Positions 13,333-37,548 of a stretch of 37,548 nt of DNA are shown here, piece after piece. Under the pieces are notes generated by a model. It was not told where the DNA came from and searched no databases. It was given only the letters and a program-made list of their open reading frames with translations. A program made the position numbers and the translations under genes. The number at the start of each line of letters is the position of its first letter. Position 1 is the stretch's first letter. This stretch comes from a virus (Duplodnaviria; Heunggongvirae; Uroviricota; Caudoviricetes): the IMG/VR virus record IMGVR_UViG_2636416131_000002, one strand, 5' to 3'.

Positions 13333-13345
13333 GTGGAGAACGAGC

Positions 13346-14098
13346 ATGAACCTTGAAGCCTTACCAAAATATTACTCCCCAAAATCTCCAAAATTGAGCG
13401 ATGACGCTCCAGCGACAGGCACCGGTTGTTTAACAATTACGGATGTAATGGCAGCGCAGGGGATGGTGCAGTCGAAAGCACCACTTGGGTTGGCCTTATT
13501 TCTGGCAAAAGTTGGTGTTCAGGACCCTCAGTTTGCGATTGAAGGCCTGCTAAATTACGCGATGGCACTGGATAACCCGACATTGAACAAATTGAGTGAA
13601 GAAATCCGGTTACAGATTATTCCTTACCTCGTGAGTTTTGCCTTTGCTGATTACTCCAGGTCTGCGGCAAGTAAGGCTCGCTGTGAGCATTGTTCAGGTA
13701 CGGGATTTTATAATGTATTGCGCGAAGTGGTGAAACACTACAGACGCGGGGAATCTGTAATCAAGGAAGAATGGGTGAAGGAACTATGTCAGCATTGCCA
13801 TGGTAAGGGCGAAGCCAGCACAGCGTGCAGAGGGTGTAAGGGTAAAGGGATTGTTCTGGATGAAAAAAGAACCCGGTTTCATGGCGTACCGGTATATAAG
13901 ATTTGTGGGCGTTGTAATGGAAACCGGTTTAGTCGTTTACCGACCACGCTGGCACGACGTCATGTCCAGAAGCTGGTACCAGACCTGACCGATTATCAGT
14001 GGTATAAGGGGTATGCGGACGTCATTGGTAAACTGGTAACAAAGTGCTGGCAGGAAGAAGCATACGCGGAAGCGCAATTGAGGAAGGTGACGAGATAA
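13346..14098 (+). CDS. quuQ: Late-gene antiterminator Q (phage 82 / 21 type), 250 aa
   Basis: MNLEALPKYYSPKSPKLSDDAPATGTGC… with zinc-binding CxxC pairs (CEHCSGTG, CQHCHGKG, CRGCKGKG, CGRCNG). GGAG ribosome-binding site; followed by a late promoter and terminator. Confidence 0.85.
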   Translation: MNLEALPKYYSPKSPKLSDDAPATGTGCLTITDVMAAQGMVQSKAPLGLALFLAKVGVQDPQFAIEGLLNYAMALDNPTLNKLSEEIRLQIIPYLVSFAFADYSRSAASKARCEHCSGTGFYNVLREVVKHYRRGESVIKEEWVKELCQHCHGKGEASTACRGCKGKGIVLDEKRTRFHGVPVYKICGRCNGNRFSRLPTTLARRHVQKLVPDLTDYQWYKGYADVIGKLVTKCWQEEAYAEAQLRKVTR

Positions 14099-14129
14099 AT
14101 GATTTTTGCTGAAGATGGCGACATGATGT

Positions 14130-14158
14130 TTGCATTTTTCAAAAAATATGGATAAAAT
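14130..14158 (+). promoter_or_regulatory. Late promoter (PR'-like): -35 TTGCAT, 17 bp, -10 TAAAAT
   Basis: Hexamers read directly, about 30 nt after the Q stop and about 50 nt upstream of an intrinsic terminator. Confidence 0.5.
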
Positions 14159-14203
14159 TTTTTCAATGATGGGCTTTGTATACCCGACGTTAAGAAAAAG
14201 TAG

Positions 14204-14234
14204 AAAACCCGCTGATGAGCGGGTTTTGTGCTTT
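14204..14234 (+). terminator. Intrinsic terminator (tR'-like) after the late promoter
   Basis: AACCCGC-TGATGA-GCGGGTT stem-loop followed by TTGTGCTTT. Confidence 0.75.
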
Positions 14235-14519
14235 AAATGGGGCAATGGTAATGTTGAATCTCATCCCGGGACTCATGTCTGTTAACTTATTATTTAGCTG
14301 GTGACTTGGTTATTTGCCTGATGTTTAAAATGTTTTCTTCCAGTACAATGTCCCTAAACACAATGAGTCTGCTTATTATATTATTAGCAGAGCTATTACG
14401 GCCAAAGTACAGCATAAGCTTTTAAAGCCAATCAACCAGTCATCAAGACAGACGGGGTTATTCATAAAAACTCTCCATGTGTGATCCGATGGGGCCTGAA
14501 ATTAAAGCTTTAATATAGC

Positions 14520-14732
14520 TCATGAAAGGTAAACATTGGCAGCTGAAGGGCCACGCAGACCATTTATCCGGCAAAATTCCACGCGTAATCCGGTGGTAAT
14601 TTCTTCTGCATCGCGGAGATTGAGCGCTGAAACATGAAGCTGGACATCGATACGACCATCGGATGGGGTGATAAGACCCTTGCCGCTTTTGCCGTCAAAG
14701 GTTTTGACAATTCCTGTCATTTTACGGGACAA
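14520..14732 (-). CDS. cspF: Cold-shock protein CspF, 70 aa
   Basis: [41 protein letters not shown]…, CspA-family fold. Confidence 0.9.
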
Positions 14733-15032
14733 AAAAATTCCTTAATACTGATAACTTGGCGCACTATACACACGTTCCTGAAGAAAGCTATAGTTTTTTG
14801 ATGGGGTTGAAGATGGCTGGATGTCTAAAATAAACATTGCTTCATATGTTCAACTATGCGTTAATGATTGCGTCGGTTTGAAGAACAGACGATATACGAA
14901 GTAGTTTACTAAAGCAGTTCTCATTTCAGGTGTTATTCATTTATTCCTTCTTTGAGTCTCTCCAATTAAGTACGAAGTCGTTTCTGTTATGCAAACCATT
15001 TATGCCGAAAGGCTCAAGTTAAGGAATGTAGA

Positions 15033-15248
15033 ATGTCAAATAAAATGACTGGTTTAGTAAAATGGTTTAACGCTGATAAAGGTTTCGGCTTTATTTCTCC
15101 TGTTGATGGTAGTAAAGATGTGTTTGTGCATTTTTCTGCGATTCAGAATGATAATTATCGAACCTTATTTGAAGGTCAAAAGGTTACCTTCTCTATAGAG
15201 AGTGGTGCTAAAGGTCCTGCAGCAGCAAATGTCATCATTACTGATTAA
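15033..15248 (+). CDS. cspB: Cold-shock protein CspB, 71 aa
   Basis: [71 protein letters not shown]. Confidence 0.95.
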
Positions 15249-15528
15249 AATTCATCGCTCGTCTGTATACGATAACGAAGAAGGCTGATGCCTGAGTAGA
15301 GATACGGACAGAGTAGTGAATATTGGATTTCTTTAATAAAAATTAAGGAGGTCCAATACATGAAACAATGGCCAGCATATTTGGCAAAATCTTAATCAGG
15401 AAAAGTATGCTAACCATTGTGGTGAAGTGCAGGTTTGCTGCATGAATAGTTTTACAGCAGAAGCTAACTGCTGGCATGGCAAAACAAAGTGCGTAAGTGG
15501 ATGACTCCCACAAAAAGCACCACAATCT

Positions 15529-15556
15529 CAAACCCGCTCAGGCGGGTTTTTTATTA
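15529..15556 (+). terminator. Intrinsic terminator about 280 nt downstream of cspB
   Basis: AACCCGC-TCAG-GCGGGTT followed by TTTTATT. Confidence 0.7.
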
Positions 15557-15611
15557 TCTGCTTTAAATATATTATTAAAATATAAAAAATACTTGTTACT
15601 AATAAAATCAA

Positions 15612-15782
15612 TCAGGCTACAGCTTTAAGATTTGTCTGGAATACTTTGTTGCAATGAGGGCAGATCAAAAGGGCACCTTTTTGTACTCTTGAAAAACTGT
15701 GTTCTGACTCTTGGGTGCAGTTTGGGCAGGAACATTTAACGAGATAATTACGGCGTGATTTTGAGTCTTTACGTTCTGACAT
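15612..15782 (-). CDS. Small zinc-ribbon protein, 56 aa (CxxC…CxxC)
   Basis: From the internal ATG with an AGGA ribosome-binding site: MSERKDSKSRRNYLVKCSCPNCTQESEHSFSRVQKGALLICPHCNKVFQTNLKAVA. Sits in the moron island between cspB and the holin. Confidence 0.45.
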   Translation of the reverse strand: MSERKDSKSRRNYLVKCSCPNCTQESEHSFSRVQKGALLICPHCNKVFQTNLKAVA

Positions 15783-16001
15783 AGGCTTTTCCTGTATAAA
15801 TGGCCGTATACAGTACACTAAATATGAAAACATTTCTCGTATTATTATTTTATATATGACTTTCTTTCAAAATAATTACTCACATTTTTAATGTGTATGT
15901 TTCTTTAGCGCCGTTGAGAACAGCGTGTGCTGTCAAAACTACCCCGTAGACTCCGATCTTTTCAAACATATTGCACCATCCGTGTACATCGGGGTGAGGA
16001 T

Positions 16002-16217
16002 ATGAAATCAATGGATAAGTTAACAACAGGTGTTGCCTATGGCACATCGGCGGGTAATGCTGGTTTCTGGGCATTGCAGTTACTCGATAAAGTAACTCCG
16101 TCACAGTGGGCTGCAATCGGTGTGCTGGGTAGCCTGGTTTTTGGCCTGCTGACGTATCTGACAAATCTTTATTTCAAGATTAAAGAAGACAGGCGTAAGG
16201 CTGCGAGAGGAGAGTAA
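16002..16217 (+). CDS. essQ: Phage-21-type class II holin (pinholin) with dual-start motif, 71 aa
   Basis: [53 protein letters not shown]…; Met1-Lys-Ser-Met4 dual start, two transmembrane helices. Confidence 0.85.
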
Positions 16218-16221
16218 TCCA

Positions 16222-16529
16222 ATGACTCAAGACTATGAACTGGTTGTGAAAGGAGTCCGTAATTTTGAGAATAAAGTTACGGTAACTGTAGCCTTACAGG
16301 ACAAAGAACGCTTTGACGGTGAAATTTTTGACCTGGATGTCGCCATGGACCGTGTTGAAGGAGCTGCGCTGGAGTTTTATGAGGCAGCAGCCAGAAGGAG
16401 CGTCCGGCAAGTCTTCCTGGAAGTAGCAGAAAAATTGTCAGAAAAAGTTGAGTCTTATCTGCAGCATCAGTACTCCTTTAAGATTGAAAATCCTGCCAAT
16501 AAGCACGAGCGTCCTCATCATAAATATAT

Positions 16530-16533
<4 letters not shown>
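16222..16533 (+). CDS. ydfR: YdfR-like protein, 103 aa
   Basis: 103-aa ORF between holin and endolysin, same length and position as Qin ydfR. Confidence 0.65.
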
Positions 16534-17557
<1,024 letters not shown>

Positions 17558-17921
17558 GGTAATATTAAATCGGAACATTTACATCGCGGAATGTAAAATT
17601 TAAATAAAAAGGACTCTTCCATGAGCCAAAATTCCTGAAATCTTAAGGGTAAGATAAAAGGTCTTAATCAGAATGACACGTTATTATTAATAAATAAAGC
17701 TATTCTTTCATTGCTGTGTTTTTCTTTACAAAAGTAATCCTTGCTATGGGTGGTTAATCATGCGTTAATGGTGTTCTGGTTTGTTACAAATTTATCTGAA
17801 GCAGTCATTGTTATAATTTTATTATTTGTACCTCTTGAGATTTCCTTGTTGGTTTTTCTCTCTGATATTTTTTTTTCGGACCATTCTGCCCAAGGGCTAA
17901 TTTCTTCAAAAGGTAATAATT

Positions 17922-18134
17922 ATGTCTAACAAAATGACTGGTTTAGTGAAATGGTTTAACCCTGAAAAAGGTTTTGGTTTCATCACGCCGAAAGATGGCA
18001 GCAAAGATGTGTTTGTCCATTTCTCAGCAATTCAGAGCAACGATTTCAAAACATTAACTGAGAATCAGGAAGTTGAATTTGGTATTGAGAACGGACCTAA
18101 AGGTCCTGCCGCTGTTCATGTAGTGGCGCTTTGA
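17922..18134 (+). CDS. cspI: Cold-shock protein CspI, 70 aa
   Basis: [70 protein letters not shown]. Confidence 0.95.
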
Positions 18135-18339
18135 GGTAGACAATATTACAAACCATATTCACTTTAGATGCCCGTGTTGTCATGGTTCCCAGTATAGAAC
18201 ATCATCTTTTGATGTTTCTGACATGAATCCTTTCGGGGCAAAATGTATCTTTTGTAAATCAATGATGATTACATTTGATAATATTTCACAATACTTAAAT
18301 GCCAGCCGTCTGTCGTTGGATTTAAAAAAGTGAAAATGA

Positions 18340-18362
18340 AGGCTCCTTCGGGAGCTTTTTTG
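18340..18362 (+). terminator. Intrinsic terminator about 200 nt downstream of cspI
   Basis: GCTCC-TTCG-GGAGC stem-loop followed by TTTTTT. Confidence 0.7.
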
Positions 18363-18405
18363 CTTGGTATCTATTCGATGGATACTCACATACTACGGTA
18401 ACATC

Positions 18406-18636
18406 ATGAAAAAAATCATAGTTTTTTTTAACTCTGAACCAGCAGTGGTAGTGCCAGCGATGACTGGAGTTAACACCATCATGCGTGAATATCCAAATGG
18501 CGAAAAAACACACCTTACTGTAATGGCCGCAGGGTTTCCATCTCTGACCGGAGATCATAAAGTCATTTATGTAGCCGCGGATCGACATGTTACTTCAGAA
18601 GAAATTCTGGAAGCAGCAATAAGGCTCTTGAGTTGA
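18406..18636 (+). CDS. Hypothetical protein, about 76 aa
   Basis: ORF with balanced composition (MKKIIVFFNSEPAVVVPAMTGVNTIMREYPNGEK…) but no convincing ribosome-binding site at either the ATG (18406) or the upstream TTG (18364). Confidence 0.3.
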   Translation: MKKIIVFFNSEPAVVVPAMTGVNTIMREYPNGEKTHLTVMAAGFPSLTGDHKVIYVAADRHVTSEEILEAAIRLLS

Positions 18637-18804
18637 TTTGATGCTATTGTATTGATAATTCAGGAAAATTCTCTTTGTCTGTTTGTGTAAAATTTAGACT
18701 ATCGTATGTTGATTATTGCGATGTTTCATCTTATCTTTTACACGTTTGCACCATATAATCGACTTACTGTGTAACTGGAAAGTCATAACAGACTAAAAGA
18801 GGAA

Positions 18805-18981
18805 ATGATGAATATTGAAAACTTAAAAACAAAAGCAGAAGCAGATATTTCTGAATATATAACAAAAAAAATTATTGAACTTAAGAAAAAGACCGGGAAA
18901 GAAGTTACCAGTATTCAGTTTACCGCACGGGAAAAAATGACGGGTCTTGAAAGCTATGATGTCAAGATTAATTTAATCTGA
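18805..18981 (+). CDS. gnsB: GnsB-like small protein (Gns family), 58 aa; below the ORF-track size cutoff
   Basis: Translated by hand: MMNIENLKTKAEADISEYITKKIIELKKKTGKEVTSIQFTAREKMTGLESYDVKINLI; AAGAGGA ribosome-binding site. Confidence 0.8.
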   Translation: MMNIENLKTKAEADISEYITKKIIELKKKTGKEVTSIQFTAREKMTGLESYDVKINLI

Positions 18982-19132
18982 TGTATTCAATAATAAAATT
19001 TATCCATAAACCTCGTTTTTACGGGGTTTTGTTATATTTGAATGGTTCCGAATATCTAAATCACAATTGTTGATGGTTTTTATTAAACCAATGCAGTCCG
19101 GCTCAGGAGTGAGAGAAGCCGGACGTTATGGT

Positions 19133-19543
19133 TTAGCGTGGTAAGATCTGTGTAGTTTTCTGGATGCTTTCAGTAAATAGTAATGAGTTATCAAAGGCAT
19201 AGTAATATCTTTGGTGTTCCTGGATATTTGTAACCCATCGGAAAACTCCTGCTTTAGCAAGATTTTCCCTGTATTGTTGAAATGTGATTTCTTTTGATTT
19301 CAACTTATTATAGGAGGTCTCTATAAGATGTTTGTTTCTGGAGAATTTAACATTTACAACCTTTTTGAGTCCTTTTACTAACACTATGTTGTCGTTTTCT
19401 AACACAATGTGAATATTATCTGTGGCTAAATAGTAAATATAAAGTGAGATATTGTGACGTTTTAGCTCAGAATAAAATAATTCACAGTTTAAATCTTTAC
19501 GCACTTGATCGAATATTTCTTTAAAAATGGCAGCCTGAGCCAT
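19133..19543 (-). CDS. ydfO: YdfO-like DUF1398 protein, 136 aa
   Basis: [31 protein letters not shown]…, length matches K-12 YdfO. An upstream in-frame ATG at 19558 is also possible. Confidence 0.8.
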
Positions 19544-19843
19544 TGGTAAACCTTCCATGTGATACGATGGCGCGTAGTTTGCATTATCGTGTTTATTGTT
19601 TCAATCTGGTCTGACCTCTTTGTGTTTTGTTGATGATTTATGTCAAATATTAAGCCTGTTTTTAATGAATAGTGTTGATTGCGTAACAAAATTGAGCCTT
19701 GCTGGCATCCAGGAGGGATATGCAACCGACAGATGTATGTAAGGTCGATGTACTCAAACTTTCATACTTTTCCTCTTTTATGCAGTAAGATTTGAAGTAA
19801 TATTTTAACCGCTAGATGACGAGCAAACGCATGGAGCGACAAA

Positions 19844-20050
19844 ATGAATAAAGAACAATCTGCTGATGAACTCTCGTTGGATCTGATTCGTGTAAAAAAT
19901 ATGCTTAATAGCACCATTTCTATGAGTTACCCGGATGTTGTAATTGCATGTATAGAACATCAGGTGTCTCTGGAAGCATTCAGGGCAATTGAGGCAGCGT
20001 TGGTGAAGCACGATAAGAATTCGAAGGATTATTCCCTGGTGGTTGACTGA
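19844..20050 (+). CDS. Hypothetical small protein, 68 aa (YnfO-like position)
   Basis: ORF between ydfO and the cos region with a weak GGAG ribosome-binding site. No family recognised. Confidence 0.35.
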
Positions 20051-20366
20051 GCACCATAACTGCTAATCATTCAAACTATTTCACCTGTGACAGAGTCAAT
20101 ATCGCATTCTGTCACTGTCAGGCTAATACAGAGCTGCAATTCAACTACTGCAATGTCCTCGTAATTAGGTGAATTTACAATATCGTCCTGTTCGGATGCC
20201 GGCTGCATTGCTGAAGATGAGGCATTTATGGTTCGCATATTTTCCCCTCATGCTCGTCAGTCCTGTGCGTAGGAAGAAACAGGACACTCACACTAATTTG
20301 TGTGGGCATGCTGTGATGTCCTTCTGAATTATTCCTATGCCATTATGTAAAGCGCTGTATCAGATG

Positions 20367-20400
20367 CTCGTCACGGCTGTCAGGCTGTCAGGCTGTCGGG
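20367..20400. repeat. Tandem GGCTGTCA repeats (three copies), part of a wider scatter of CTGTCA motifs from about 20086
   Basis: TCACGGCTGTCAGGCTGTCAGGCTGTCGGG read directly; further CTGTCAC / CTGTCAG / GTGACAG motifs at 20086-20135. Candidate terminase small-subunit binding sites. Confidence 0.45.
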
Positions 20401-20425
20401 TCCTCCCGGTGGGGGCCCCTGCCAC

Positions 20426-20443
20426 GGGGCGGGAGCGTCGCGG
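20426..20443. other. Candidate cos cleavage site, GGGGCGGGAGCGTCGCGG
   Basis: GC-rich island in an AT-rich intergenic region about 180 nt upstream of the terminase small-subunit ATG. 13 of 17 positions match the lambda left end GGGCGGCGACCTCGCGG as I recall it. Confidence 0.45.
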
Positions 20444-20622
20444 AAAAAGGCTAGTTTTTGCATTTCCATGGCGGCGGCAGCATGTTTGGTAATTTATTGA
20501 TAATTAAAAGTTATTTCTCTTTTTACCTGTACAATATTTTTTTCTCCCTGTCATTAGATCAGTTTACAATTAATTGAAATATATAAATAAACATGATTTT
20601 CACCTGCCAGATGGAGTTGCTT

Positions 20623-23467: not shown

Positions 23468-24975
23468 TGGCAATTCTTGATGATGTGATTGGCGTTTTTT
23501 CACCAGGATGGAAAGCGGCAAGGCTGCGTTCCCGTGCGGTGATCCAGGCTTATGAGGCCGTAAAAACGACACGGACACACAAAGCCCGGCGGGAAAACCG
23601 AACTGCCGACCAGTTAAGCCAGTACGGGGCCGTGTCGTTACGTGAGCAGGCCCGTTACCTTGATAACAACCACGATCTGGTTATTGGTGTATTTGACAAG
23701 CTGGAAGAACGGGTGGTGGGGAAAAACGGGATTATTGTCGAGCCACATCCGGTATTACGCAATGGGGCCATTGCCCGTGATCTGGCAGCGGAGATACGCA
23801 CCCGATGGAGTGAATGGTCTGTCAGTCCGGAAGTCACCGGGCAGTTTACCCGTCCGATGCTGGAACGTCTGATGCTGCGTACCTGGCTGCGCGATGGTGA
23901 GGTGTTTGCCCAGATGGTTTCCGGGCGCATAAACAGCCTGACGCCTTCTGCCGGTGTTCATTTCTGGCTGGAGGCGCTCGAGCCGGACTTTATTCCCATG
24001 ACCAGTGATGAGAGCAACAGGCTGAATCAGGGCGTGTTTGTTGATGACTGGGGGCGTCCCGAAAAATATCTGGTGTATAAAAGCCGTCCCGTATCCGGGC
24101 GGCAGATGGAAACCAAAGAAGTGGATGCAGAGCGAATGCTGCATCTTAAATTTGTTCGCCGTCTGCACCAGATGCGCGGGACGTCTTTGTTGTCCGGTGT
24201 GCTGATCCGCCTCAGTGCCCTGAAAGAGTATGAAGATTCTGAGCTGACTGCAGCAAGGATCGCCGCTGCTCTGGGGATGTACATCCGGAAAGGCGACGGG
24301 CAGAGCTATGAACCGGATGGTAATGGCAGCAAGGAGAATGAACGCGAGCTTACCATTCAGCCAGGCATTATTTACGACGATCTGAAACCCGGCGAAGAAA
24401 TCGGAATGGTGAAGTCGGATCGTCCCAATCCTAACCTTGAAACTTTTCGTAATGGTCAGTTGCGTGCCGTGGCGGCGGGCAGTCGTCTGAGTTTTTCCAG
24501 TACGGCACGCAACTATAACGGCACTTACAGCGCCCAGCGTCAGGAGCTGGTTGAATCCACTGATGGCTACCTGATCCTGCAGGACTGGTTTATTGGTGCC
24601 GTCACCCGCCCGATGTATCGTGCCTGGCTGAAACAGGCTGTGGCATCCGGTGTTATCAGGCTACCCCGCGATCTTGATCGTTCTTCACTGTATACCGCGG
24701 TGTATTCCGGACCGGTGATGCCGTGGATTGACCCTGTTAAGGAGGCTGAGGCCTGGAAAATTCAGATTCGTGGTGGAGCGGCGACAGAATCAGACTGGGT
24801 ACGTGCAGGTGGTCGTAATCCGGATGATGTCAAACGTCGGCGCAAGGCCGAAATTGATGAAAACCGCAAGCTGGATCTGGTATTTGATACCGATCCGGCC
24901 AGTGATAAAGGAGGCAGCAGTGCCGCAACGAAACGACAGGAGCCGCAGCACACCGACGACCAGTCCGAAGAATAA
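23467..24975 (+). CDS. Portal protein (lambda gpB family), about 502 aa
   Basis: Size and position after terminase and W; start chosen at the ATG overlapping the W stop (ORF track starts upstream at 23395). Confidence 0.8.
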   Translation: MAILDDVIGVFSPGWKAARLRSRAVIQAYEAVKTTRTHKARRENRTADQLSQYGAVSLREQARYLDNNHDLVIGVFDKLEERVVGKNGIIVEPHPVLRNGAIARDLAAEIRTRWSEWSVSPEVTGQFTRPMLERLMLRTWLRDGEVFAQMVSGRINSLTPSAGVHFWLEALEPDFIPMTSDESNRLNQGVFVDDWGRPEKYLVYKSRPVSGRQMETKEVDAERMLHLKFVRRLHQMRGTSLLSGVLIRLSALKEYEDSELTAARIAAALGMYIRKGDGQSYEPDGNGSKENERELTIQPGIIYDDLKPGEEIGMVKSDRPNPNLETFRNGQLRAVAAGSRLSFSSTARNYNGTYSAQRQELVESTDGYLILQDWFIGAVTRPMYRAWLKQAVASGVIRLPRDLDRSSLYTAVYSGPVMPWIDPVKEAEAWKIQIRGGAATESDWVRAGGRNPDDVKRRRKAEIDENRKLDLVFDTDPASDKGGSSAATKRQEPQHTDDQSEE

Positions 24976-24988
24976 TTCCTGGTTCAGG

Positions 24989-26947
24989 ATGCAGGCAGGT
25001 CACCAGAGTGACGCGGATATTTATATTTATGACGAGATTGGTTTCTGGGGTGTTACAGCGAAGCAGTTTATCAGTGATCTGAATGCACTGGGCGATATCA
25101 CCCACATTAATCTCCATATTAATTCACCGGGTGGCGATGTCTTTGAAGGCATCGCCATTTTTAATGCACTGAAAACACATGGTGCGTCCATTACCGTTTA
25201 TGTCGACGGTGTGGCGGCGTCAATGGCGTCGGTCATTGCGATGGTGGGAAACCCGGTCATTATGCCGGAAAACTCCTTCATGATGATTCATAAACCATTT
25301 GGCTTTACGGGCGGTGATGCGGAGGACATGCGCACCTATGCCGACCTGCTCGATAAAGTTGAGGCGGTTCTGTTACCCGCTTATGCACAGAAAACCGGGA
25401 AAACCACCGATGAAATTGCTGCCATGCTGGCGGATGAGACCTGGATGTCCGGTGCCGAATGTCTGGCACAGGGATTTGCTGATCAGGTGACACCAGCCGT
25501 TAAGGCAATGGCATGTATTCAGTCAAAACGTACAGAGGAATTTAAAAAGATGCCGGAATCCATTCGAAACATGATTACTCCGCCACGCAACAGTGCTCCA
25601 CGCGTACAGGATGATGAACCTGCAGCCTCCCGGACGCCAGTGCAGGCAGCAGCACCCGTGGTGGATGAAAACAGTATCCGTGCGCAGGTACTGGCAGAGC
25701 AAAAAGCGCGTGTAAACGGTATTAATGATCTGTTTGCCATGTTTGGCGGGCGTTATCAGACGCTGCAGGCCCAGTGTCTTGCCGATCCTGAATGTTCGCT
25801 GGAGCAGGCCCGTGAAAAGCTGTTGAACGAGATGGGGCGCGAGTCCACGCCATCCAATAAAAATACCCCGGCTCATATTTATGCCGGTAACGGTAATTTT
25901 GTGGGGGACGGGATTCGCCAGGCGCTGATGGCGCGTGCCGGATTTGAAAAAACCGAACGTGATAATGTCTACAACGGGATGACCCTGCGTGAATATGCCC
26001 GTATGTCACTAACTGAACGGGGTATTGGGGTTTCCGGTTATAACCCGATGCAGATGGTCGGTGCGGCGTTCACACACAGTACGTCTGACTTCGGTAATAT
26101 TCTGCTGGATGTTGCGAACAAAGCCATTCTGCAGGGCTGGGAAGATGCCCCTGAAACCTATGAACAGTGGACGCGGAAAGGTCAGTTGTCTGATTTTAAA
26201 ATTGCCCATCGTGTGGGTATGGGGGGCTTCAGTGCTCTGCGTCAGGTGCGTGAAGGGGCGGAATATAAATACGTCACCACCGGAGATAAACAGGCCACTA
26301 TTGCACTGGCGACCTATGGCGAGCTGTTCAGTATCACCCGTCAGGCCATTATCAATGATGATCTGAATATGCTGACCGATGTCCCGATGAAACTGGGCCG
26401 TGCGGCGAAATCCACTATTGCCGATCTGGTTTATGCCATTCTGACGTCTAACCCGAAAATCTCCACAGATAATGTAAGTCTGTTCGATAAAGCGAAACAT
26501 GCAAACGTACTGGAGAGCGCTGCAATGGACGTGGCATCGCTGGATAAAGCCCGCCAGTTGATGCGCGTTCAGAAAGAGGGGGAGCGTCATCTGAATATTC
26601 GTCCTGCGTTCGTACTGGTACCGACGGCGATGGAGTCTGTTGCTAACCAGGTCATTCGCTCCTCAAGTGTCAAGGGGGCTGACATTAACGCCGGTATTAT
26701 TAACCCGGTGAAAGATTTTGCGACCGTTATTGCAGAGCCTCGTCTTGATGATAACAGCCAGACCACCTTCTACCTGGCTGCGTCAAAAGGCTCCGATACG
26801 ATTGAAGTGGCTTATCTCAACGGTGTGGATACGCCATATATTGATCAGATGGAGGGCTTCAGTGTGGATGGCGTGACAACGAAAGTGCGTATTGACGCCG
26901 GTGTCGCGCCAGTTGATCACCGCGGTCTGGTGAAATGTACGGCGTAA
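24989..26947 (+). CDS. Fused prohead protease (ClpP / S49-like) and major capsid protein, about 652 aa
   Basis: N-terminal ~200 aa look like a ClpP-family serine protease (INSPGGDVFEGIAIFNALKTHGASITVYVDGVAASMASVIAMVG). C-terminal ~300 aa look like a major capsid protein. One continuous frame with no stop. ORF track starts at 24728 inside the portal gene; 24989 is the first ATG after the portal stop. Confidence 0.75.
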   Translation: MQAGHQSDADIYIYDEIGFWGVTAKQFISDLNALGDITHINLHINSPGGDVFEGIAIFNALKTHGASITVYVDGVAASMASVIAMVGNPVIMPENSFMMIHKPFGFTGGDAEDMRTYADLLDKVEAVLLPAYAQKTGKTTDEIAAMLADETWMSGAECLAQGFADQVTPAVKAMACIQSKRTEEFKKMPESIRNMITPPRNSAPRVQDDEPAASRTPVQAAAPVVDENSIRAQVLAEQKARVNGINDLFAMFGGRYQTLQAQCLADPECSLEQAREKLLNEMGRESTPSNKNTPAHIYAGNGNFVGDGIRQALMARAGFEKTERDNVYNGMTLREYARMSLTERGIGVSGYNPMQMVGAAFTHSTSDFGNILLDVANKAILQGWEDAPETYEQWTRKGQLSDFKIAHRVGMGGFSALRQVREGAEYKYVTTGDKQATIALATYGELFSITRQAIINDDLNMLTDVPMKLGRAAKSTIADLVYAILTSNPKISTDNVSLFDKAKHANVLESAAMDVASLDKARQLMRVQKEGERHLNIRPAFVLVPTAMESVANQVIRSSSVKGADINAGIINPVKDFATVIAEPRLDDNSQTTFYLAASKGSDTIEVAYLNGVDTPYIDQMEGFSVDGVTTKVRIDAGVAPVDHRGLVKCTA

Positions 26948-26970: not shown

Positions 26971-26990
26971 GGCCCGTAAGGGCTTTTTTT
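26971..26990 (+). terminator. Short hairpin plus T7 run after the capsid gene
   Basis: GGCCC-GTAA-GGGC followed by TTTTTTT, then a second hairpin CAGCCCC-TGAA-CGGGGCTG at 27003-27021. Confidence 0.4.
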
Positions 26991-27033
26991 GTACCTGAAA
27001 TCAGCCCCTGAACGGGGCTGTGCGGAGACAGTT

Positions 27034-27357
27034 ATGGCAAAGAATTTTGTAGAAGAAGGAAAAACGGTGGCGATTGTTGCCAGTGCAGCCATCAGCAGCG
27101 GAGATCTGGTGCAGGTGGGCGATGTTTTTGCGGTGGCGCTGACCGATATTCCACAGGGTGAAACAGGCGACGGCATGACCGAAGGTGTGTTTATGCTGCC
27201 TAAGCTGAAAACGGATGACATGAAAACGGGTAAGAAGGTTTATCTGAAGTCCGGAAAAGTTCAGCTGACTAACAGCGGCTCTGATCCGCTGGTCGGGGTT
27301 GTCTGGGCAGATGCCGGAACCAGTGCAGAAGAAGTGCCGGTAAAACTCAATGTCTGA
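27034..27357 (+). CDS. Small head protein, about 107 aa (possible decoration-like / DUF2190-type)
   Basis: GGAG ribosome-binding site before the ATG at 27034; position directly after the major capsid gene. Family guess from memory only. Confidence 0.45.
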   Translation: MAKNFVEEGKTVAIVASAAISSGDLVQVGDVFAVALTDIPQGETGDGMTEGVFMLPKLKTDDMKTGKKVYLKSGKVQLTNSGSDPLVGVVWADAGTSAEEVPVKLNV

Positions 27358-27625
27358 TCCCTTTTCCCGGCTGGCAGCGCGTATGGATGCTATCACGGTT
27401 AGAAAGATGGGAAAGACAGCCTCGATTAATGATGTCGATATGACTGTGATCCCGGGAGAAACACTGGCAGAGCTGAATGCTCTGTCCGGACCTGCGGTCT
27501 CTCTGGTGGTGTTTTCTTCGGGATACCGCCCACGGCGCGGGGATCGCGTTGTTTATGACGGACAACAATGGACGGTCACACGGCATGAACGTTTTAACGG
27601 TAAGCCAATGATCTTTATTGAGTAA
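27350..27625 (+). CDS. Head-tail connector (lambda FII-like position), 91 aa
   Basis: Small protein between head and tail genes, overlapping the previous ORF; contains an RRGD motif as in lambda FII. Confidence 0.45.
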   Translation: MSDPFSRLAARMDAITVRKMGKTASINDVDMTVIPGETLAELNALSGPAVSLVVFSSGYRPRRGDRVVYDGQQWTVTRHERFNGKPMIFIE

Positions 27626-33100: not shown

Positions 33101-33190
33101 GTGGTTTATGACCTTGGGAAAAAAGCGGCAGCGGACTTTATGCAACAGCAGGCCCGTGATGGTGGTCGGTTAAGTGGAGCATATCGGTAA
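30125..33190 (+). CDS. H: Tail tape-measure protein (lambda gpH family), about 1021 aa
   Basis: Long coiled-coil-rich ORF after G/T. C-terminal segment (…NNDGTNGQIGPAALK.VYD…DGG) matches lambda H as recalled; N-terminal part appears different. GGAGG ribosome-binding site. Confidence 0.9.
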   Translation: MDQIANLVIDLGIDAAEFKNEIPRIKNLLNGAASDAERSSARMQRFMERQTQAARQTMQAVSSAATAASVHAQTVEKSAQAHERMAREVEQTRQRMEALSQKMREEQAQAMALAEAQDKAAAAFYRQIDSVKQASAGLQELQRIQQQIRQARNSGGIGQQDYLALISEVTAKTRVLTQAEEEATRQKVAFIRQLKEQATRQNLSSSELLRAKAAQLGVSSAAEVYIRKMEQAGKATHSLGLKSAAARQEIGVLIGELARGNLGALRGSGITLANRAGWIDTLMSPKGMMLGGVIGGIAASVYGLGKAWYDGQKEGEEFNRQLSLTGHYAGVTAGQLWTLSRAISGNGITQHAAAGALAQVVGSGAFRGNDIGMVARAAAQMERSVGQSVSDTINQFKRLKDDPVNAAKALDNELHFLTATQLEQIRVLGDQGRSSDAARIAMSALAEETGRRTADIDNNLNALGSTLKYLSDLWSRFWDAAMNIGREDSLDEQIAALQEKVSRAKRLPWTASSSQVEYDQQRLNDLQEKKRQKDLQDAKEQAERNYQEQQKRRNAENAALNRMNETEAARHQREIARINSMQYADQAVRDAAIQRENERYEKALASGKKKTRETRNDEATRLLLQYSQQQAQVEGQIAAARQSAGIATEKMTEAHKQLLALQQRISDLDGKKLTADEKSVLARKDELIQALTLLDVKQQELRKQTALNDLKKKTIQLTSQLAEEERAQRQQHDLDIATVGMGDQQRQRYQVQLSLRQKYQQQLEQLRRDSEQKGTYNTDDYRKAEQALTESLNRQLNENRRYWQQLEVVQGNWKNGVLRAFQDFTVDADNTAGTAEQVFSSAFSNMGNGLATFVTTGKLNFKSFTSSVLSDMAKILAQATMMKSIKGIGSVLGFDLSSLSLNANGGIYQSADLSRYSGTVVNRPTFFAFAKGAGVMGEAGPEAILPLRRGADGKLGVVADIGGSGMAMFAPQYNIEINNDGTNGQIGPAALKVVYDLGKKAAADFMQQQARDGGRLSGAYR

Positions 33191-33519
33191 TGGAGACGTT
33201 TCACTGGAAAGTGCGCCCGGATATGAATGTGGTATCAGAGCCGAAAGTGGTGACAGTGAAGCTGGGCGATGGTTATGAACAGCGTCGTGCGGCGGGACTG
33301 AATAACCAGTTGTCGACTTACAGCGTGACGATACGTGTTCGTAAATGTGAACACCCATCTTTAAAAGCCTTTCTGGAACGGCACGGTGGCGTCCGCGCAT
33401 TTCAGTGGACGCCACCTTATGACTGGAAGCCGATCAGGGTGGTTTGTCGTAAATGGTCGGCAAGCGTAGGGGCGCTGTGGGTAACCATAACGGCAGATTT
33501 TGAACAGGTCGTGGCATAG
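33190..33519 (+). CDS. M: Minor tail protein M (lambda gpM-like), 109 aa
   Basis: Same length as lambda M; start overlaps the H stop (TAATG). Confidence 0.85.
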   Translation: METFHWKVRPDMNVVSEPKVVTVKLGDGYEQRRAAGLNNQLSTYSVTIRVRKCEHPSLKAFLERHGGVRAFQWTPPYDWKPIRVVCRKWSASVGALWVTITADFEQVVA

Positions 33520-33528
33520 GAGGCTCTG

Positions 33529-34227
33529 ATGCAGGATATTCCACAGGAAACACATCATGAGACGACACGCCTCACTCAGTCAGCCCAGGTGGTGCTCTGG
33601 GAAATCGATCTGACAGAGGTCGGTGGTGAACGTTATTTTTTCTGTAATGAGCAGAACGAAAAAGGTGAGCCGGTCACCTGGCAGGGGTGGCAGTATCAGC
33701 CGTATCCCATTCAGGGGACGGGATTTGAACTGAACGGTAAGGGCAGTGCTGCCCGTCCGACACTGACGGTCTCTAACCTGCACGGCATGGTCACCGGGAT
33801 GGCGGAAGACCTGCAGAGTCTGGTCGGCGGAACGGTGGTCAGGCGTAAGGTTTACGCCCGTTTTCTGGATGCGGTGAACTTCGTCAACGGAAACAGCGAA
33901 GCCGATCCGGAGCAGGAGGTGATCAGCCGCTGGCGCATCGAGCAGTGCAGCGAACTGAGCGCGGTCAGTGTCTCTTTTGTACTGTCCACACCGACTGAAA
34001 CGGATGGCTCTGTTTTTCCGGGGCGTATCATGCTGGCCAACACCTGCACCTGGACCTATCGCGGCGATGAGTGCGGTTATAGCGGTCCGGCGGTCGCGGA
34101 TGAATATGACCAGCCGACGTCCGATATCACGAAGGATAAATGCAGCAAATGCCTGAGCGGCTGTAAGTTTCGCAATAACGTCGGCAACTTTGGCGGCTTC
34201 CTTTCCATTAACAAACTTTCGCAGTAA
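33529..34227 (+). CDS. L: Minor tail protein L (lambda gpL-like), 232 aa, with C-terminal cysteine cluster
   Basis: Same length as lambda L; AGGAGG ribosome-binding site; C-terminal cysteines (CTWTYRGDECGY…CSKCLSGC). Confidence 0.9.
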   Translation: MQDIPQETHHETTRLTQSAQVVLWEIDLTEVGGERYFFCNEQNEKGEPVTWQGWQYQPYPIQGTGFELNGKGSAARPTLTVSNLHGMVTGMAEDLQSLVGGTVVRRKVYARFLDAVNFVNGNSEADPEQEVISRWRIEQCSELSAVSVSFVLSTPTETDGSVFPGRIMLANTCTWTYRGDECGYSGPAVADEYDQPTSDITKDKCSKCLSGCKFRNNVGNFGGFLSINKLSQ

Positions 34228-34231
34228 TCCC

Positions 34232-34975
34232 ATGACAGAGACAGAATCAGCGATTCTGGCGCACGCCCGGCGATGTGCGCCAGCGGAGTCGTGCGGCTTC
34301 GTGGTGAGAACACCGGAGGGGGAAAGATATTTTCCCTGCGTGAATATCTCTGGTGAGCCGGAGGCGTATTTCCGGATGTCGCCGGAGGACTGGCTGAGTG
34401 CAGAAATGCAGGGAGAGATTGTGGCGCTGGTCCACAGCCACCCCGGTGGTCTGCCCTGGCTGAGTGAGGCCGACCGGCGGCTGCAGGTGCAGAGTGATTT
34501 GCCGTGGTGGCTGGTCTGCCGGGGGGCGATTCATAAATTCCGCTGTGTGCCGCATCTCACCGGGCGGCGCTTTGAGCACGGGGTGACGGACTGTTACACG
34601 CTGTTCCGGGACGCTTACCATCTGGCGGGAATTGAGATGCCGGATTTTCATCGCGGGGATGACTGGTGGCGTCACGGCCAGAATCTCTATCTGGATAATA
34701 TGGAGGCAACGGGGTTGTATCAGGTGCCGTTGTCAGCGGCCCAGCCGGGCGATGTGCTGCTGTGCTGTTTTGGTTCATCGGTGCCGAATCATGCCGCCAT
34801 TTACTGTGGCGACGGCGAGCTGCTGCACCATATTCCTGAACAACTGAGTAAACGAGAGAGGTACACCGACAAATGGCAGCGACGCACACACTCCCTCTGG
34901 CGTCACCGGGCATGGCACGCATCTGCCTTTACGGGGATTTGCAACGATTTGGCCGCCGCATCGATCTTCGTGTGA
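34232..34975 (+). CDS. K: Tail tip assembly protein K (lambda gpK-like): JAMM/MPN motif plus NlpC/P60-like C-terminal region
   Basis: HSHPGGLPWLSEAD fits the JAMM HxHx7Sx2D motif. Start at 34232 gives 247 aa; an internal ATG at 34376 would give 199 aa, the length I recall for lambda K. Confidence 0.8.
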   Translation: MTETESAILAHARRCAPAESCGFVVRTPEGERYFPCVNISGEPEAYFRMSPEDWLSAEMQGEIVALVHSHPGGLPWLSEADRRLQVQSDLPWWLVCRGAIHKFRCVPHLTGRRFEHGVTDCYTLFRDAYHLAGIEMPDFHRGDDWWRHGQNLYLDNMEATGLYQVPLSAAQPGDVLLCCFGSSVPNHAAIYCGDGELLHHIPEQLSKRERYTDKWQRRTHSLWRHRAWHASAFTGICNDLAAASIFV

Positions 34976-35544
34976 AAACGGGGGCTGAAGCTATCCGGGC
35001 GCTGGCCACACAGCTCCCGGCGTTTCGTCAGAAACTGAGCGACGGCTGGTATCAGGTACGGATTGCCGGGCGGGATGTCAGCACGTCCGGATTAACGGCG
35101 CAGTTACATGAGACTCTGCCTGATGGCGCTGTGATTCATATTGTTCCCAGAGTCGCCGGGGCCAAGTCAGGTGGTGTATTCCAGATTGTCCTGGGAGCTG
35201 CCGCCATTGCCGGATCATTCTTTACTGCCGGAGCCACCCTTGCAGCATGGGGGGCAGCCATTGGGGCCGGTGGTATGACCGGCATCCTGTTTTCTCTCGG
35301 TGCCAGTATGGTGCTCGGTGGTGTGGCGCAGATGCTGGCACCGAAAGCCAGAACTCCCCGTACACAGACAACGGATAACGGCAAACAGAACACCTATTTT
35401 TCCTCACTGGATAACATGGTTGCTCAGGGCAATGTTCTGCCTGTTCTGTACGGTGAAATGCGTGTGGGGTCGCGGGTGGTTTCTCAGGAGATCAGCACGG
35501 CAGACGAAGGGGACGGTGGTCAGGTTGTGGTGATTGGTCGCTGA
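34873..35544 (+). CDS. I: Tail tip assembly protein I (lambda gpI-like), 223 aa
   Basis: 223 aa with a glycine/alanine-rich hydrophobic core, overlapping the 3' end of K in another frame. Confidence 0.8.
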   Translation: MAATHTLPLASPGMARICLYGDLQRFGRRIDLRVKTGAEAIRALATQLPAFRQKLSDGWYQVRIAGRDVSTSGLTAQLHETLPDGAVIHIVPRVAGAKSGGVFQIVLGAAAIAGSFFTAGATLAAWGAAIGAGGMTGILFSLGASMVLGGVAQMLAPKARTPRTQTTDNGKQNTYFSSLDNMVAQGNVLPVLYGEMRVGSRVVSQEISTADEGDGGQVVVIGR

Positions 35545-35604
35545 TGCAAAATGTTTTATGTGAAACCGTCTCCGGGCGGTTTTGTCGTTTATGGAGCATG
35601 ACGA

Positions 35605-37548
35605 ATGGGTAAAGGCAGCAGTAAGGGGCATACCCCGCGCGAAGCGAAGGATAACCTGAAATCCACGCAGTTGCTGAGTGTGATCGATGCCATCAGCGAA
35701 GGGCCGGTTGAAGGTCCGGTGGATGGATTAAAAAGCGTGCTGCTGAACAGTACGCCAGTGCTGGACAGTGAGGGGAATACCAATATCTCCGGCGTCACGG
35801 TGGTGTTCCGGGCCGGTGAGCAGGAGCAGACACCGCCGGAGGGATTTGAATCCTCCGGCTCCGAGACGGTGCTGGGTACGGAAGTGAAATACGACACGCC
35901 GATCACCCGGACCATCACGTCGGCAAACATTGACCGACTGCGTTTTACCTTCGGCGTGCAGGCACTGGTGGAAACCACCTCAAAGGGGGACAGGAATCCG
36001 TCGGAAGTCCGCCTGCTGGTTCAGATCCAGCGTAACGGTGGCTGGGTGACGGAAAAAGACATCACCATTAAGGGCAAAACCACCTCGCAGTATCTGGCCT
36101 CGGTGGTGGTGGGTAACCTGCCGCCGCGCCCGTTCAATATCCGGATGCGCAGGATGACGCCGGACAGCACCACAGACCAGCTGCAGAACAAAACGCTCTG
36201 GTCGTCATACACCGAAATCATCGATGTGAAACAGGGCTACCCGAACACGGCACTGGTCGGCGTGCAGGTGGATTCGGAGCAGTTCGGCAGCCAGCAGGTG
36301 AGCCGTAATTATCATCTTCGCGGGCGCATTCTGCAGGTGCCGTCGAACTATAACCCGCAGACGCGGCAATACAGCGGTATCTGGGACGGAACGTTAAAAC
36401 CGGCATACAGCAACAACATGGCCTGGTGTCTGTGGGATATGCTGACCCACCCGCGCTACGGCATGGGGAAACGTCTTGGTGCGGCGGATGTGGATAAATG
36501 GGCGCTGTATGTCATCGGCCAGTACTGCGACCAGTCGGTGCCGGACGGTTTTGGCGGTACGGAGCCGCGCATCACCTGTAATGCGTACCTGACCACACAG
36601 CGTAAGGCGTGGGATGTGCTCAGTGATTTCTGCTCGGCGATGCGCTGTATGCCGGTATGGAACGGGCAGACGCTGACGTTCGTGCAGGACCGGCCGTCGG
36701 ATAAGGTGTGGATCTATAACCGCAGTAATGTGGTGATGCCGGATGATGGCGCGCCGTTCCGCTACAGCTTCAGCGCCCTGAAGGACCGCCATAATGCCGT
36801 TGAGGTGAACTGGATTGACCCGAATAACGGCTGGGAGACGGCGACAGAGCTTGTGGAGGACACGCAGGCCATTGCCCGTTACGGTCGTAATGTCACGAAG
36901 ATGGATGCCTTTGGCTGTACCAGCCGGGGGCAGGCACATCGCGCCGGGCTGTGGCTGATTAAAACAGAACTGCTGGAAACGCAGACCGTGGACTTCAGCG
37001 TGGGCGCAGAAGGGCTTCGCCATGTGCCGGGCGATGTCATTGAAATCTGTGATGATGACTATGCCGGTATCAGCATCGGCGGGCGCGTGCTGGCGGTAAA
37101 CAGCCAGACCCGGACGCTGACGCTCGACCGTGAAATCACGCTGCCATCTTCCGGCACCACGCTGATAAGCCTGGTTGACGGGCAGGGGAGTCCGGTCAGC
37201 GTGGAGGTTCAGTCCGTCACCGACGGCGTGAAGGTGAAAGTGAGCCGTGTTCCTGACGGCGTTGCTGAATACAGCGTATGGGGGCTGAAGCTGCCGACGT
37301 TGCGCCAGCGCCTGTTCCGCTGCGTGAGTATCCGTGAGAACGACGACGGCACGTATGCCATCACCGCCGTGCAGCATGTACCGGAAAAAGAGGCCATCGT
37401 GGATAACGGGGCGCACTTTGACGGCGACCAGAGCGGCACGGTAAATGGTGTCACGCCGCCAGCGGTGCAGCACCTGACCGCAGAAGTCACCGCAGACAGC
37501 GGGGAATACCAGGTGCTGGCGCGCTGGGACACGCCGAAGGTGGTGAAG
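35605..37548 (+). CDS. J: Tail tip / host-specificity protein J (lambda gpJ-like), N-terminal 648 codons; continues beyond window
   Basis: Frame from the ATG at 35605 is open to the window end; translation begins MGKGSSKGHTPREAKDNLKSTQLLSVIDAISEGPVEGPVDGLKSVLLNSTPVL, which matches lambda J as I recall it. Missing from the ORF track because there is no stop in the window. Confidence 0.9.
   Translation, partial: MGKGSSKGHTPREAKDNLKSTQLLSVIDAISEGPVEGPVDGLKSVLLNSTPVLDSEGNTNISGVTVVFRAGEQEQTPPEGFESSGSETVLGTEVKYDTPITRTITSANIDRLRFTFGVQALVETTSKGDRNPSEVRLLVQIQRNGGWVTEKDITIKGKTTSQYLASVVVGNLPPRPFNIRMRRMTPDSTTDQLQNKTLWSSYTEIIDVKQGYPNTALVGVQVDSEQFGSQQVSRNYHLRGRILQVPSNYNPQTRQYSGIWDGTLKPAYSNNMAWCLWDMLTHPRYGMGKRLGAADVDKWALYVIGQYCDQSVPDGFGGTEPRITCNAYLTTQRKAWDVLSDFCSAMRCMPVWNGQTLTFVQDRPSDKVWIYNRSNVVMPDDGAPFRYSFSALKDRHNAVEVNWIDPNNGWETATELVEDTQAIARYGRNVTKMDAFGCTSRGQAHRAGLWLIKTELLETQTVDFSVGAEGLRHVPGDVIEICDDDYAGISIGGRVLAVNSQTRTLTLDREITLPSSGTTLISLVDGQGSPVSVEVQSVTDGVKVKVSRVPDGVAEYSVWGLKLPTLRQRLFRCVSIRENDDGTYAITAVQHVPEKEAIVDNGAHFDGDQSGTVNGVTPPAVQHLTAEVTADSGEYQVLARWDTPKVVK

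Follow-up and report, generated by a model that had tools for sequence, protein, structure and literature searches.

The stretch of DNA analysed here, referred to as the window, comprises 37,548 nucleotides of a tailed phage (IMG/VR record IMGVR_UViG_2636416131_000002). From position 24989 to 26947 (+ strand) it contains a reading frame of 652 codons in which translation revealed no internal stop, and the frame is stop-free throughout from 24920 to 26944. The chance of a 652-codon open frame was estimated to be approximately 1e-14, calculated as (61/64)^652, and the frame is, therefore, well above chance. Two Pfam domains are encoded in this same frame, CLP_protease (residues 23-168) and Phage_capsid_4 (residues 357-649; both in 652-aa numbering), and the Pfam and NCBIfam matches give the order ClpP-like protease, middle region and capsid domain in one uninterrupted frame, as had been proposed in a preliminary description of this DNA. 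The protein matched NF045540, the curated NCBI model for the fusion ('ClpP-like prohead protease/major capsid protein fusion protein'), with 986 bits (cutoff 475), residues 9-651 being aligned with model positions 2-651 of 652. To the sister family NF045541 only residues 197-649 were matched, with 402 bits and under the family's cutoff of 525; the scaffold and capsid parts are common to both, but the N-terminal (protease) part of NF045541 was not aligned. PHROG 133 was matched with 1186 bits.

The fusion gene is present in approximately 2,017 of 5,426 complete E. coli genomes, and identical copies are found in six complete genomes. Plaque-forming phages with ~ 99% identical copies have been isolated and propagated on E. 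coli K-12, C and MC1061. The frame was intact in 69 of 69 homologues with 51-99% identity from Enterobacterales, Pasteurellaceae, Pseudomonas and Shewanella; this set includes 65 full-length homologues of other species as well as Gifsy-2, mEp213 and a Pseudomonas phage. Since the frame is unbroken in all of these, the possibility that a sequencing or assembly error, or decay of a prophage, removed a stop that had divided a protease gene from a capsid gene is practically excluded; artefactual portal-protease-capsid proteins of 1080-1159 aa do exist in the databases for this region, but their junctions are scattered, as expected from sporadic indels, and the identical genomes, the plaque-forming phages and the curated model for the fusion argue against an artefact as well. 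A programmed frameshift from the portal gene into the fusion gene, an idea that came from the 1159-aa database proteins, was rejected because the junctions are scattered over positions 24734-24944.

In the preliminary description the gene began with the ATG at 24989 (24989-26947, +; 652 aa), but probably it starts in the same frame at the GTG at 24920 and encodes a ClpP-like protease/scaffold/major capsid polyprotein of 675 aa and 73.5 kDa (24920-26947, +). The GTG-started gene overlaps the 3' end of the portal gene by 56 nt and has a Shine-Dalgarno (SD) sequence, AGGAGG (24909-24914, +), 5 nt upstream; the same AGGAGG or GGAGG at 5 nt is found in mEp213 and the Pseudomonas phage. Start codon and SD are conserved at this position in 22 of 30 representatives, PGAP chose the GTG at 24920 in the 100% identical STEC409 copy, and the annotations of Gifsy-2, mEp213 and the Pseudomonas phage place the start upstream of the ATG as well. 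Furthermore, an invariant Ser-Trp is encoded upstream of the ATG at 24989 and downstream of the portal stop codon. The ATG at 24989 is the annotated start in mEp460, cdtI and other phage records, and the NCBIfam model has 652 positions, its alignment beginning at residue 9 of the 652-aa version, but we consider a start at this codon unlikely: it is without a usable SD because an AGG abuts the ATG, its position is occupied by Ile in Gifsy-2 and in the Pseudomonas homologue, and both the conserved Ser-Trp and the conserved GTG start site lie upstream of it. A conserved SD was not found at the ATG and the mRNA structure there is average (z 0.44).

The ClpP-like (S14) head-maturation protease domain (25055-25492, +) was matched by Pfam CLP_protease with an E-value of 4.6e-36 and by the NCBIfam model NF045542 (Clp_rel_HeadMat) with 217 bits (cutoff 120), and PDB ClpP chains were matched with E-values down to 8e-16; no other protease family was seen among the Pfam and NCBIfam matches of the fusion protein. 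The putative catalytic Ser101 (Ser78 in 652 numbering; codon at 25220-25222, +) aligns with the Ser in the AASM motif of E. coli ClpP and is Ser in 68 of 69 homologues, and the putative catalytic His124 (His101 in 652 numbering; 25289-25291, +), which corresponds in the alignment to the His of the ClpP motif MIHQP, is invariant (69/69). In the pairwise alignment, Glu173 (25436-25438, +) occupies the position of the catalytic Asp171 of ClpP; it is invariant in all 69 homologues, the Asp of ClpP being replaced by Glu, and may be the third member of the triad. Asp188 in a GFAD motif was considered as catalytic Asp and rejected, as the alignment with E. coli ClpP puts Asp171 at Glu173.

The middle region had been described as a linker of about 150 residues, but it is not a plain linker: a conserved Met-Pro motif and a variable Pro/Ala-rich tether are followed by a conserved helical scaffold-like domain, and the conserved scaffold-like region amounts to ~ 110 residues. 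The hypervariable tether, which is rich in Pro, Ala and Gln (25586-25660, +), varies in length among the homologues (alignment A3, columns about 13-48), and the helical, delta-domain-like region (25661-25864, +) forms a conserved block in the same alignment. An AF2 prediction for the 675-aa protein, based on an input alignment of 23 sequences with 75-99% identity, had a mean pLDDT of 34.7 and a pTM of 0.22; values of 60-82 were reached only in the scaffold-like region, with helices at residues 250-273, 280-288 and 294-308. By analogy with Gifsy-2 and HK97, a scaffold role of this region is plausible. The major capsid protein region (25874-26944, +) is of the Mu gpT/HK97 type and extends from an NGN motif (N324-G325-N326), which is invariant among the homologues, to the C terminus; maturation cleavage would be expected near residues 305-320. 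It was matched by Pfam Phage_capsid_4 (E 1.4e-54) and also by Mu-like_gpT, and a profile match to the solved Mu-GpT-type capsid proteins 8rkx/8rkc was found (E 1.4e-10). Because of the low mean pLDDT, the HK97 fold of the capsid domain is predicted from sequence profiles only.

Directly past the stop codon of the fusion gene, a GC hairpin followed by a T7 run resembles a terminator (26971-26994, +), and a rho-independent terminator is annotated at the matching place in the records of mEp460 and mEp213. The following gene (27034-27357, +) encodes a head decoration/cement protein of 107 aa (Pfam Phage_cement_2, E 9e-21; PHROG 122, head decoration), which is 60% identical to the gene product at the matching position in Gifsy-2, and the gene after it (27350-27625) belongs to the Pfam family 'Gifsy-2' (PF13856) and has a weak gpFII-like match. 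The cement gene is, as noted before, the only small gene in front of the head-tail connector. With a gpA-type terminase, a small W-like gene, a lambda-family portal, the fusion gene, the cement gene and the PF13856 gene, the order of genes is that of Gifsy-2; the head-gene neighbourhood is collinear with Gifsy-2 with 45-72% identity, and collinearity extends from TerL to J (42-76% identity) without a break at the head-tail border. Compared with lambda, TerL (A) is only 24% and the portal protein (B) 22% identical, and lambda W, C, Nu3, D, E, FI and FII had no detectable match in the head block (C, Nu3, D, E, FI and FII were compared by BLASTP and tblastn at E 1e-3). From terminase to decoration gene, the head module as a whole is, thus, non-lambda. 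The tail proteins are identical to those of lambda by 56% (M), 93% (L), 86-95% (K), 99.6% (I) and 98% (J), which indicates a sharp, recent-looking junction with lambda inside the tail, at L-K-I-J. The fused gene had been taken as a departure from the lambda-like tail module next to it and as a sign of module exchange. A recent exchange with lambda is apparent, but at L-K-I-J, where identity rises from 56% in M to 93% in L; the capsid gene is no isolated departure, as it lies in a head block that is non-lambda as a whole and collinear with Gifsy-2. From this collinearity and the lack of a break between head and tail it follows that head and tail have long been paired in this way and that the combination is typical of the lineage.

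[quoted passage not shown] The Gifsy-2 study of Effantin et al. 2010 (Virology 402:355) reportedly used cryo-EM and spoke of a 'tripartite capsid gene', and the cryo-EM work is said to have described a decorated T=7 capsid from which protease and scaffold are removed by proteolysis. Both genes have the order ClpP, scaffold, capsid, a portal gene upstream, the cement and PF13856 genes followed by the tail genes Z-U-V downstream and an internal Met-Pro with AGGAG upstream of it. Unlike the window, Gifsy-2 resides in another host genus (Salmonella), its protein extends further at the N terminus (696 aa) and carries small linker insertions, and its tail tip is not lambda-identical. The genes of cdtI, mEp460, Tritos, Ayreon and phi458 (gp05, 'protease/scaffold protein') share 98.7-99.4% nucleotide identity with the window gene and 96-98% over the whole structural half of the window; essentially, this is the same gene, the records differing only in name and chosen start. 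Based on these comparisons, we consider, with a probability of about 0.9, that the gene encodes the head-assembly polyprotein of an E. coli lambdoid prophage of the Gifsy-2/cdtI/mEp460 type. The suggestion that such fusions are known in some phages can be put more strongly: given the end-to-end match to NF045540 and the tripartite gene of Gifsy-2, the protease-scaffold-capsid fusion is already known as a curated, named and ordinary family. In Pseudomonas phage MD8, gp5 is a 693-aa protease-scaffold-capsid protein encoded by a single gene in a lambdoid genome (PMC8508860). MD8 and its relatives are more distant in sequence and have another tail module; the window protein shares 56-57% identity with the homologue of the Pseudomonas phage vB_Pae_CF145a.

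In lambda and Mu, too, a ClpP/SppA-clan protease is joined to a scaffold and there is a trimeric decoration protein; the capsid domain is of the Mu gpT type. In lambda (C/Nu3/D/E) and Mu (I/Z/T), however, the capsid protein is encoded by a separate gene, whereas it is fused in the window. Further, the decoration gene follows the capsid gene in the window but precedes it in lambda. A lambda-type head module with separate genes for C (S49), Nu3, D and E was not found in the window, nor was an HK97-type module with a separate gp4-family protease gene upstream of the capsid gene. HK97 gp5 is similar in that the scaffold function (delta domain) is covalently linked to the capsid protein at its N terminus and is removed by the protease, but the gp4 protease of HK97 is encoded separately and belongs to family S78, unlike the fused ClpP-type protease of the window. 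The two also differ in decoration: Gifsy-2 capsids carry trimeric decoration proteins and HK97 has covalent chainmail instead (PMC8538268), and in the window a cement-protein gene follows the capsid gene.

A check for an internal start between the domains, as suggested in the preliminary description, revealed a conserved candidate at the junction of protease and scaffold. The in-frame ATG of Met211 (Met188 in 652 numbering; 25550-25552, +) is preceded by an SD-like GAGGA (25535-25539, +) and would give rise to a scaffold-capsid protein of 465 aa and 50.7 kDa with the same layout as HK97 gp5. The AGGA core and the Met-Pro at Met211 are both invariant in 69 of 69 homologues. AGGA is kept although the encoded residues vary (E-E, E-D, Q-E, K-D, K-E, G-D), and the codon before the GA codon is NAG in 44 of 44 in-register representatives, compared to ~ 35% gene-wide; the 69 homologues are related and these codon statistics overstate their independence. 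Among the 675 codon positions, only Met211 besides codon 1 combines a conserved start with an SD, and no other in-frame ATG, GTG or TTG with a conserved SD was found along the gene. Codons 205-218 are the least structured mRNA in the gene. Where the motif is lost in register (L053, L050), it reappears shifted. Protease-scaffold relatives that are not fused to a capsid domain have neither the Met nor the SD. Relatives with separate protease and scaffold-capsid genes joined at Met211 were sought, but those found, the protease-only relatives L075-L085, did not fit, their downstream capsid genes being unrelated.

The pattern points to two nested genes, one for the full 675-aa protein and one for a scaffold-capsid protein of 465 aa that would correspond to HK97 gp5, a reading to which we give slightly better than even odds. 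Alternatively, only the full-length polyprotein is made, every subunit bringing its own protease and scaffold, and AGGA and ATG have another role, for instance in pausing the ribosome at the domain boundary or in a Met-Pro motif that acts at the protein level. This is the simplest reading of the 'tripartite capsid gene' of Gifsy-2 and MD8. Met-Pro and the following residues are also conserved as protein, a Cupriavidus relative has RMP without the SD, and the MD8 paper is silent on internal starts (PMC8508860). A protein-level motif cannot, however, explain the invariant third base G in 44 of 44 representatives despite E/Q/K variation, nor the shifted reappearance of the motif; in addition, an initiation site agrees with the spacing, the open structure of the mRNA and the invariance of the ATG, and Met211 can be Leu in relatives without capsid fusion. 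We therefore regard synthesis of the polyprotein only as possible but somewhat doubtful. The lambda scaffold is reported to be translated from a start codon inside the protease gene and in its frame (Shaw & Murialdo 1980), and the literature states the same for Mu and PaMx73. The open papers on Gifsy-2-type and MD8-type genes, a set apart from the original Gifsy-2 paper, were found to contain no mention of an internal start, and further literature searches turned up nothing on internal starts or on processing sites. The internal start is possibly the one new point of this analysis, but it may be known from the original Gifsy-2 paper.

How the product of 24920-26947 would be processed and assembled can be inferred from the Gifsy-2 study and from the biology of HK97, lambda and Mu. 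The single frame encodes a ClpP-family serine protease, a flexible tether with a helical scaffold-like (delta-domain-like) region and a Mu-gpT/HK97-type major capsid protein. On the portal, the polyprotein would form a T=7 procapsid whose interior holds the protease and scaffold parts, and the protease would then cut itself and the scaffold off the capsid domain. DNA packaging would lead to expansion of the shell, which would be stabilised by trimers of the downstream cement protein. If both starts were used, GTG 24920 would give the 675-aa protein and ATG 25550 the 465-aa scaffold-capsid protein without protease. Thereby the copy number of the protease could be set below that of the capsid protein, as with nested lambda C/Nu3 and Mu I/Z, and the ratio of the two starts would determine the number of proteases per procapsid.

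The fusion itself is of little consequence, being a curated family that is present in more than one third of the complete E. coli genomes and of which the Gifsy-2 orthologue has been studied. For annotation it is relevant that many phage records name the gene only 'protease', 'Nu3' or 'head-tail preconnector', that many place its start, probably, 69 nt too late and that spurious portal-protease-capsid chimeras are present in the databases. The internal start, if true, would be of modest importance: it would explain how one protease per subunit is avoided despite the fusion, and it would mean that the nested-gene solution of lambda C/Nu3 persists within a larger fusion.

The frame at 24989-26947 (plus strand) was translated into 652 codons with the terminal codon as its sole stop, and according to the ORF list it remains open 5' as far as 24719. 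A Pfam search placed CLP_protease at residues 23-168 (E 4.6e-36) and Phage_capsid_4 at residues 357-649 (E 1.4e-54; both in the 652-residue numbering), with a weaker match to Mu-like_gpT. Since the frame is stop-free and both domains lie in it, the single protease-capsid ORF of the preliminary description is real at 24989-26947; the ClpP nature of its N-terminal part was borne out further by the NCBIfam domain model NF045542 (“head maturation protease, ClpP-related”), which also scored above its cutoff. One genome per species was scanned, which revealed 65 full-length homologues with 51-99% identity in Enterobacterales, Pasteurellaceae, Pseudomonas, Shewanella and other hosts. In all of these, as in Gifsy-2, mEp213 and a Pseudomonas phage, the frame from protease to capsid was unbroken. 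A stop or sequencing error separating the domains was found neither in the window nor in any homologue compared and, judged from these alignments, the fusion is no artefact. At least 13 singleton database proteins of 1080-1159 aa join portal, protease and capsid, with junctions scattered from ~24734 to 24944, in the region of the portal 3' end and the open 5' part of the fusion frame (24719-24975). This scatter rules out a programmed event joining portal to fusion gene; these chimeras therefore stem from sporadic single-base indels or assembly errors.

The NCBIfam model NF045540 ([quoted passage not shown]) aligned end to end with the protein at 986 bits (cutoff 475), and PHROG 133 matched over the full length. 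Several complete E. coli chromosomes hold 100%-identical DNA copies, which PGAP names after NF045540, and at least 80% of the gene is present in 2,017 of 5,426 complete E. coli genomes. The fusion gene DNA is shared at 98.7-99.4% identity by the isolated phages cdtI, mEp460, phi458, Ayreon, Tritos and others, and over the entire structural half of the window these phages show 96-98% identity. The Gifsy-2 product shares 70% identity over the full length; its gene is the “tripartite capsid gene” reported by Effantin et al. 2010. Gifsy-2 capsids bear trimeric decoration proteins (PMC8538268), and the same single-gene layout was described for Pseudomonas MD8-like phages (PMC8508860). Given the NCBIfam model and the Gifsy-2 and MD8-like precedents, the fusion is already known and curated, and the gene has nothing unusual within its family, which has also been studied experimentally.

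The start had been placed at ATG 24989 (652 aa). In the PGAP annotation the gene begins at GTG 24920, encodes 675 aa and overlaps the portal gene by 56 nt; AGGAGG lies 5 nt upstream of this GTG. The position of ATG 24989 is Ile in Gifsy-2 and in the Pseudomonas homologue, and Ser-Trp just 5' of it, past the portal stop, was invariant in a four-way alignment. When every codon position was scanned in 46 representatives (<90% identity), a conserved start codon together with a Shine-Dalgarno-like core was found at only two positions, one of them codon 1 (GTG). For these reasons the start is taken as GTG 24920, and the 675-residue numbering, which runs 23 higher than that of the 652-aa version, is used below.

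In an alignment with E. coli ClpP, Ser101 (68/69 sequences) and His124 (69/69) fall on its active-site Ser and His; Glu173 (codon 25436-25438), invariant in 69/69 homologues, occupies the position of the ClpP catalytic Asp171 and is a putative third catalytic residue. The protease is followed by an invariant Met211-Pro212, a stretch rich in Pro/Ala/Gln whose length and sequence vary and, in the alignment, a conserved block of ~65 residues (248-315), which is predicted to be helical and is the sole part with pLDDT 60-82 in an otherwise failed AF2 model. The sequence is capsid-like from the invariant Asn-Gly-Asn at 324-326 up to the C terminus; a profile of 38 homologues matched capsid proteins of Mu-GpT type with solved structures at E 1.4e-10. 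The proposed order of protease, linker and capsid thus held for the outer domains, but since a conserved, predicted helical block follows the variable stretch, the best reading of the “linker”, in analogy to Gifsy-2 and HK97, is a tether followed by a domain of scaffold or delta type. A Cupriavidus necator prophage relative (L076, 1453-2931) follows a lambda-like logic but with a ClpP-type protease: a 373-aa protein comprises protease, Pro/Ala-rich linker and scaffold-like tail, and the small 117-aa ORF that comes next is, at a guess from size and position, a decoration gene. No homology to the capsid part of the window was found. Such a layout hints at a possible origin of the tripartite gene by fusion.

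The check for an internal start yielded several signals that indicate a candidate at Met211 (ATG 25550-52). This Met is invariant in 69/69 homologues, with AGGA 10-14 nt upstream, although the residues encoded at AGGA vary (Glu-Glu, Glu-Asp, Gln-Glu, Lys-Asp, Lys-Glu); in two homologues with changed register AGGAG or GAGGA recurs, shifted. The codon giving “AG” is NAG in 44/44 in-register representatives, compared with ~35% NAG among such codons gene-wide, a count that is no true probability as the sequences are related; synonymous sites in neighbouring codons, by contrast, vary freely. Apart from codon 1, codon 211 alone combines a conserved start with a Shine-Dalgarno core in the 46 representatives (background of such cores, 5%). 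mRNA folding was calculated for a -25 to +20 segment at each codon, with values averaged across the 46 representatives. All of the 13 positions with least structure in the gene fell within codons 205-218 (mean dG ~-3.6 kcal/mol vs a gene mean of -8.95; z ~+2.8 to +3.1). Codon 1 was also open (z +1.6); ATG 24989 was average. Protease-scaffold relatives without capsid fusion have no Shine-Dalgarno sequence, and the Met may be Leu. Combined, motif, codon choice, uniqueness, open mRNA and fusion specificity suggest a nested 465-aa (50.7 kDa) scaffold-capsid product beside the 73.5-kDa full-length protein; such a nested start would parallel lambda C/Nu3 and Mu I/Z.

Upstream of the fusion gene lie genes for a gpA-type large terminase, a W-like adaptor (72 aa) and a lambda-family portal. 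Between the capsid gene stop and the decoration gene (Phage_cement_2) is a terminator-like GC hairpin (26971-26984) that together with the T7 run behind it spans 26971-26994, a site annotated as rho-independent terminator in mEp460 and mEp213. The decoration gene is followed by a PF13856 “Gifsy-2 family” gene, which has a weak gpFII-like match, and by Z, U, V and the remaining lambda-like tail. Compared with lambda, TerL (24%) and portal (22%) were distant and identity to W, C, Nu3, D, E, FI and FII was undetectable in the gene comparison; Z, U, V and M shared 48-56% (M 56%), G 33% and H 25%, and the tail-tip proteins (33190-37548) L 93%, K 86-95%, I 99.6% and J 98%. In Gifsy-2, which has been cited as a phage whose head and tail modules stem from different types (PMC6471424), all genes from TerL to J are collinear with the window at 42-76% identity. 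Because no step occurs at the head-tail border, the pairing of a Gifsy-2-type head with a lambda-like tail shaft is old and lineage-wide. The module exchange inferred in the preliminary description is partly borne out, but its boundary was misplaced: the identities point to a recent exchange with a lambda-like phage at the tail tip, with the recombination junction near 33520.

The early/regulatory half (1-20500) and the structural half differ in their best phage matches, a mosaic pattern: the former is closest to PhiR42_1 (98.7% identity, 87% coverage), the latter to cdtI and mEp460. In the early half, matching phages annotate exodeoxyribonuclease VIII at the place of an 823-aa ORF (1064-3535, minus strand). 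At ~13000-20500, 5' of the head genes, the 100%-matching E. coli chromosome STEC409 carries genes of Qin-prophage type (ydfU, the antiterminator ydfT, cspF, cspB, cspI, essD, rrrQ, rzpQ, gnsB and ynfN); between about 14 and 20 kb, G+C drops to 36-40%. Qin is defective in K-12; the window looks to be an intact prophage related to it.

In sum, this analysis adds to a known family a corrected start, an account of the middle part of the protein, the actual location of the mosaic junction with lambda, and an internal-start hypothesis that can be tested. This hypothesis is the one possibly new point and may already be in the literature.
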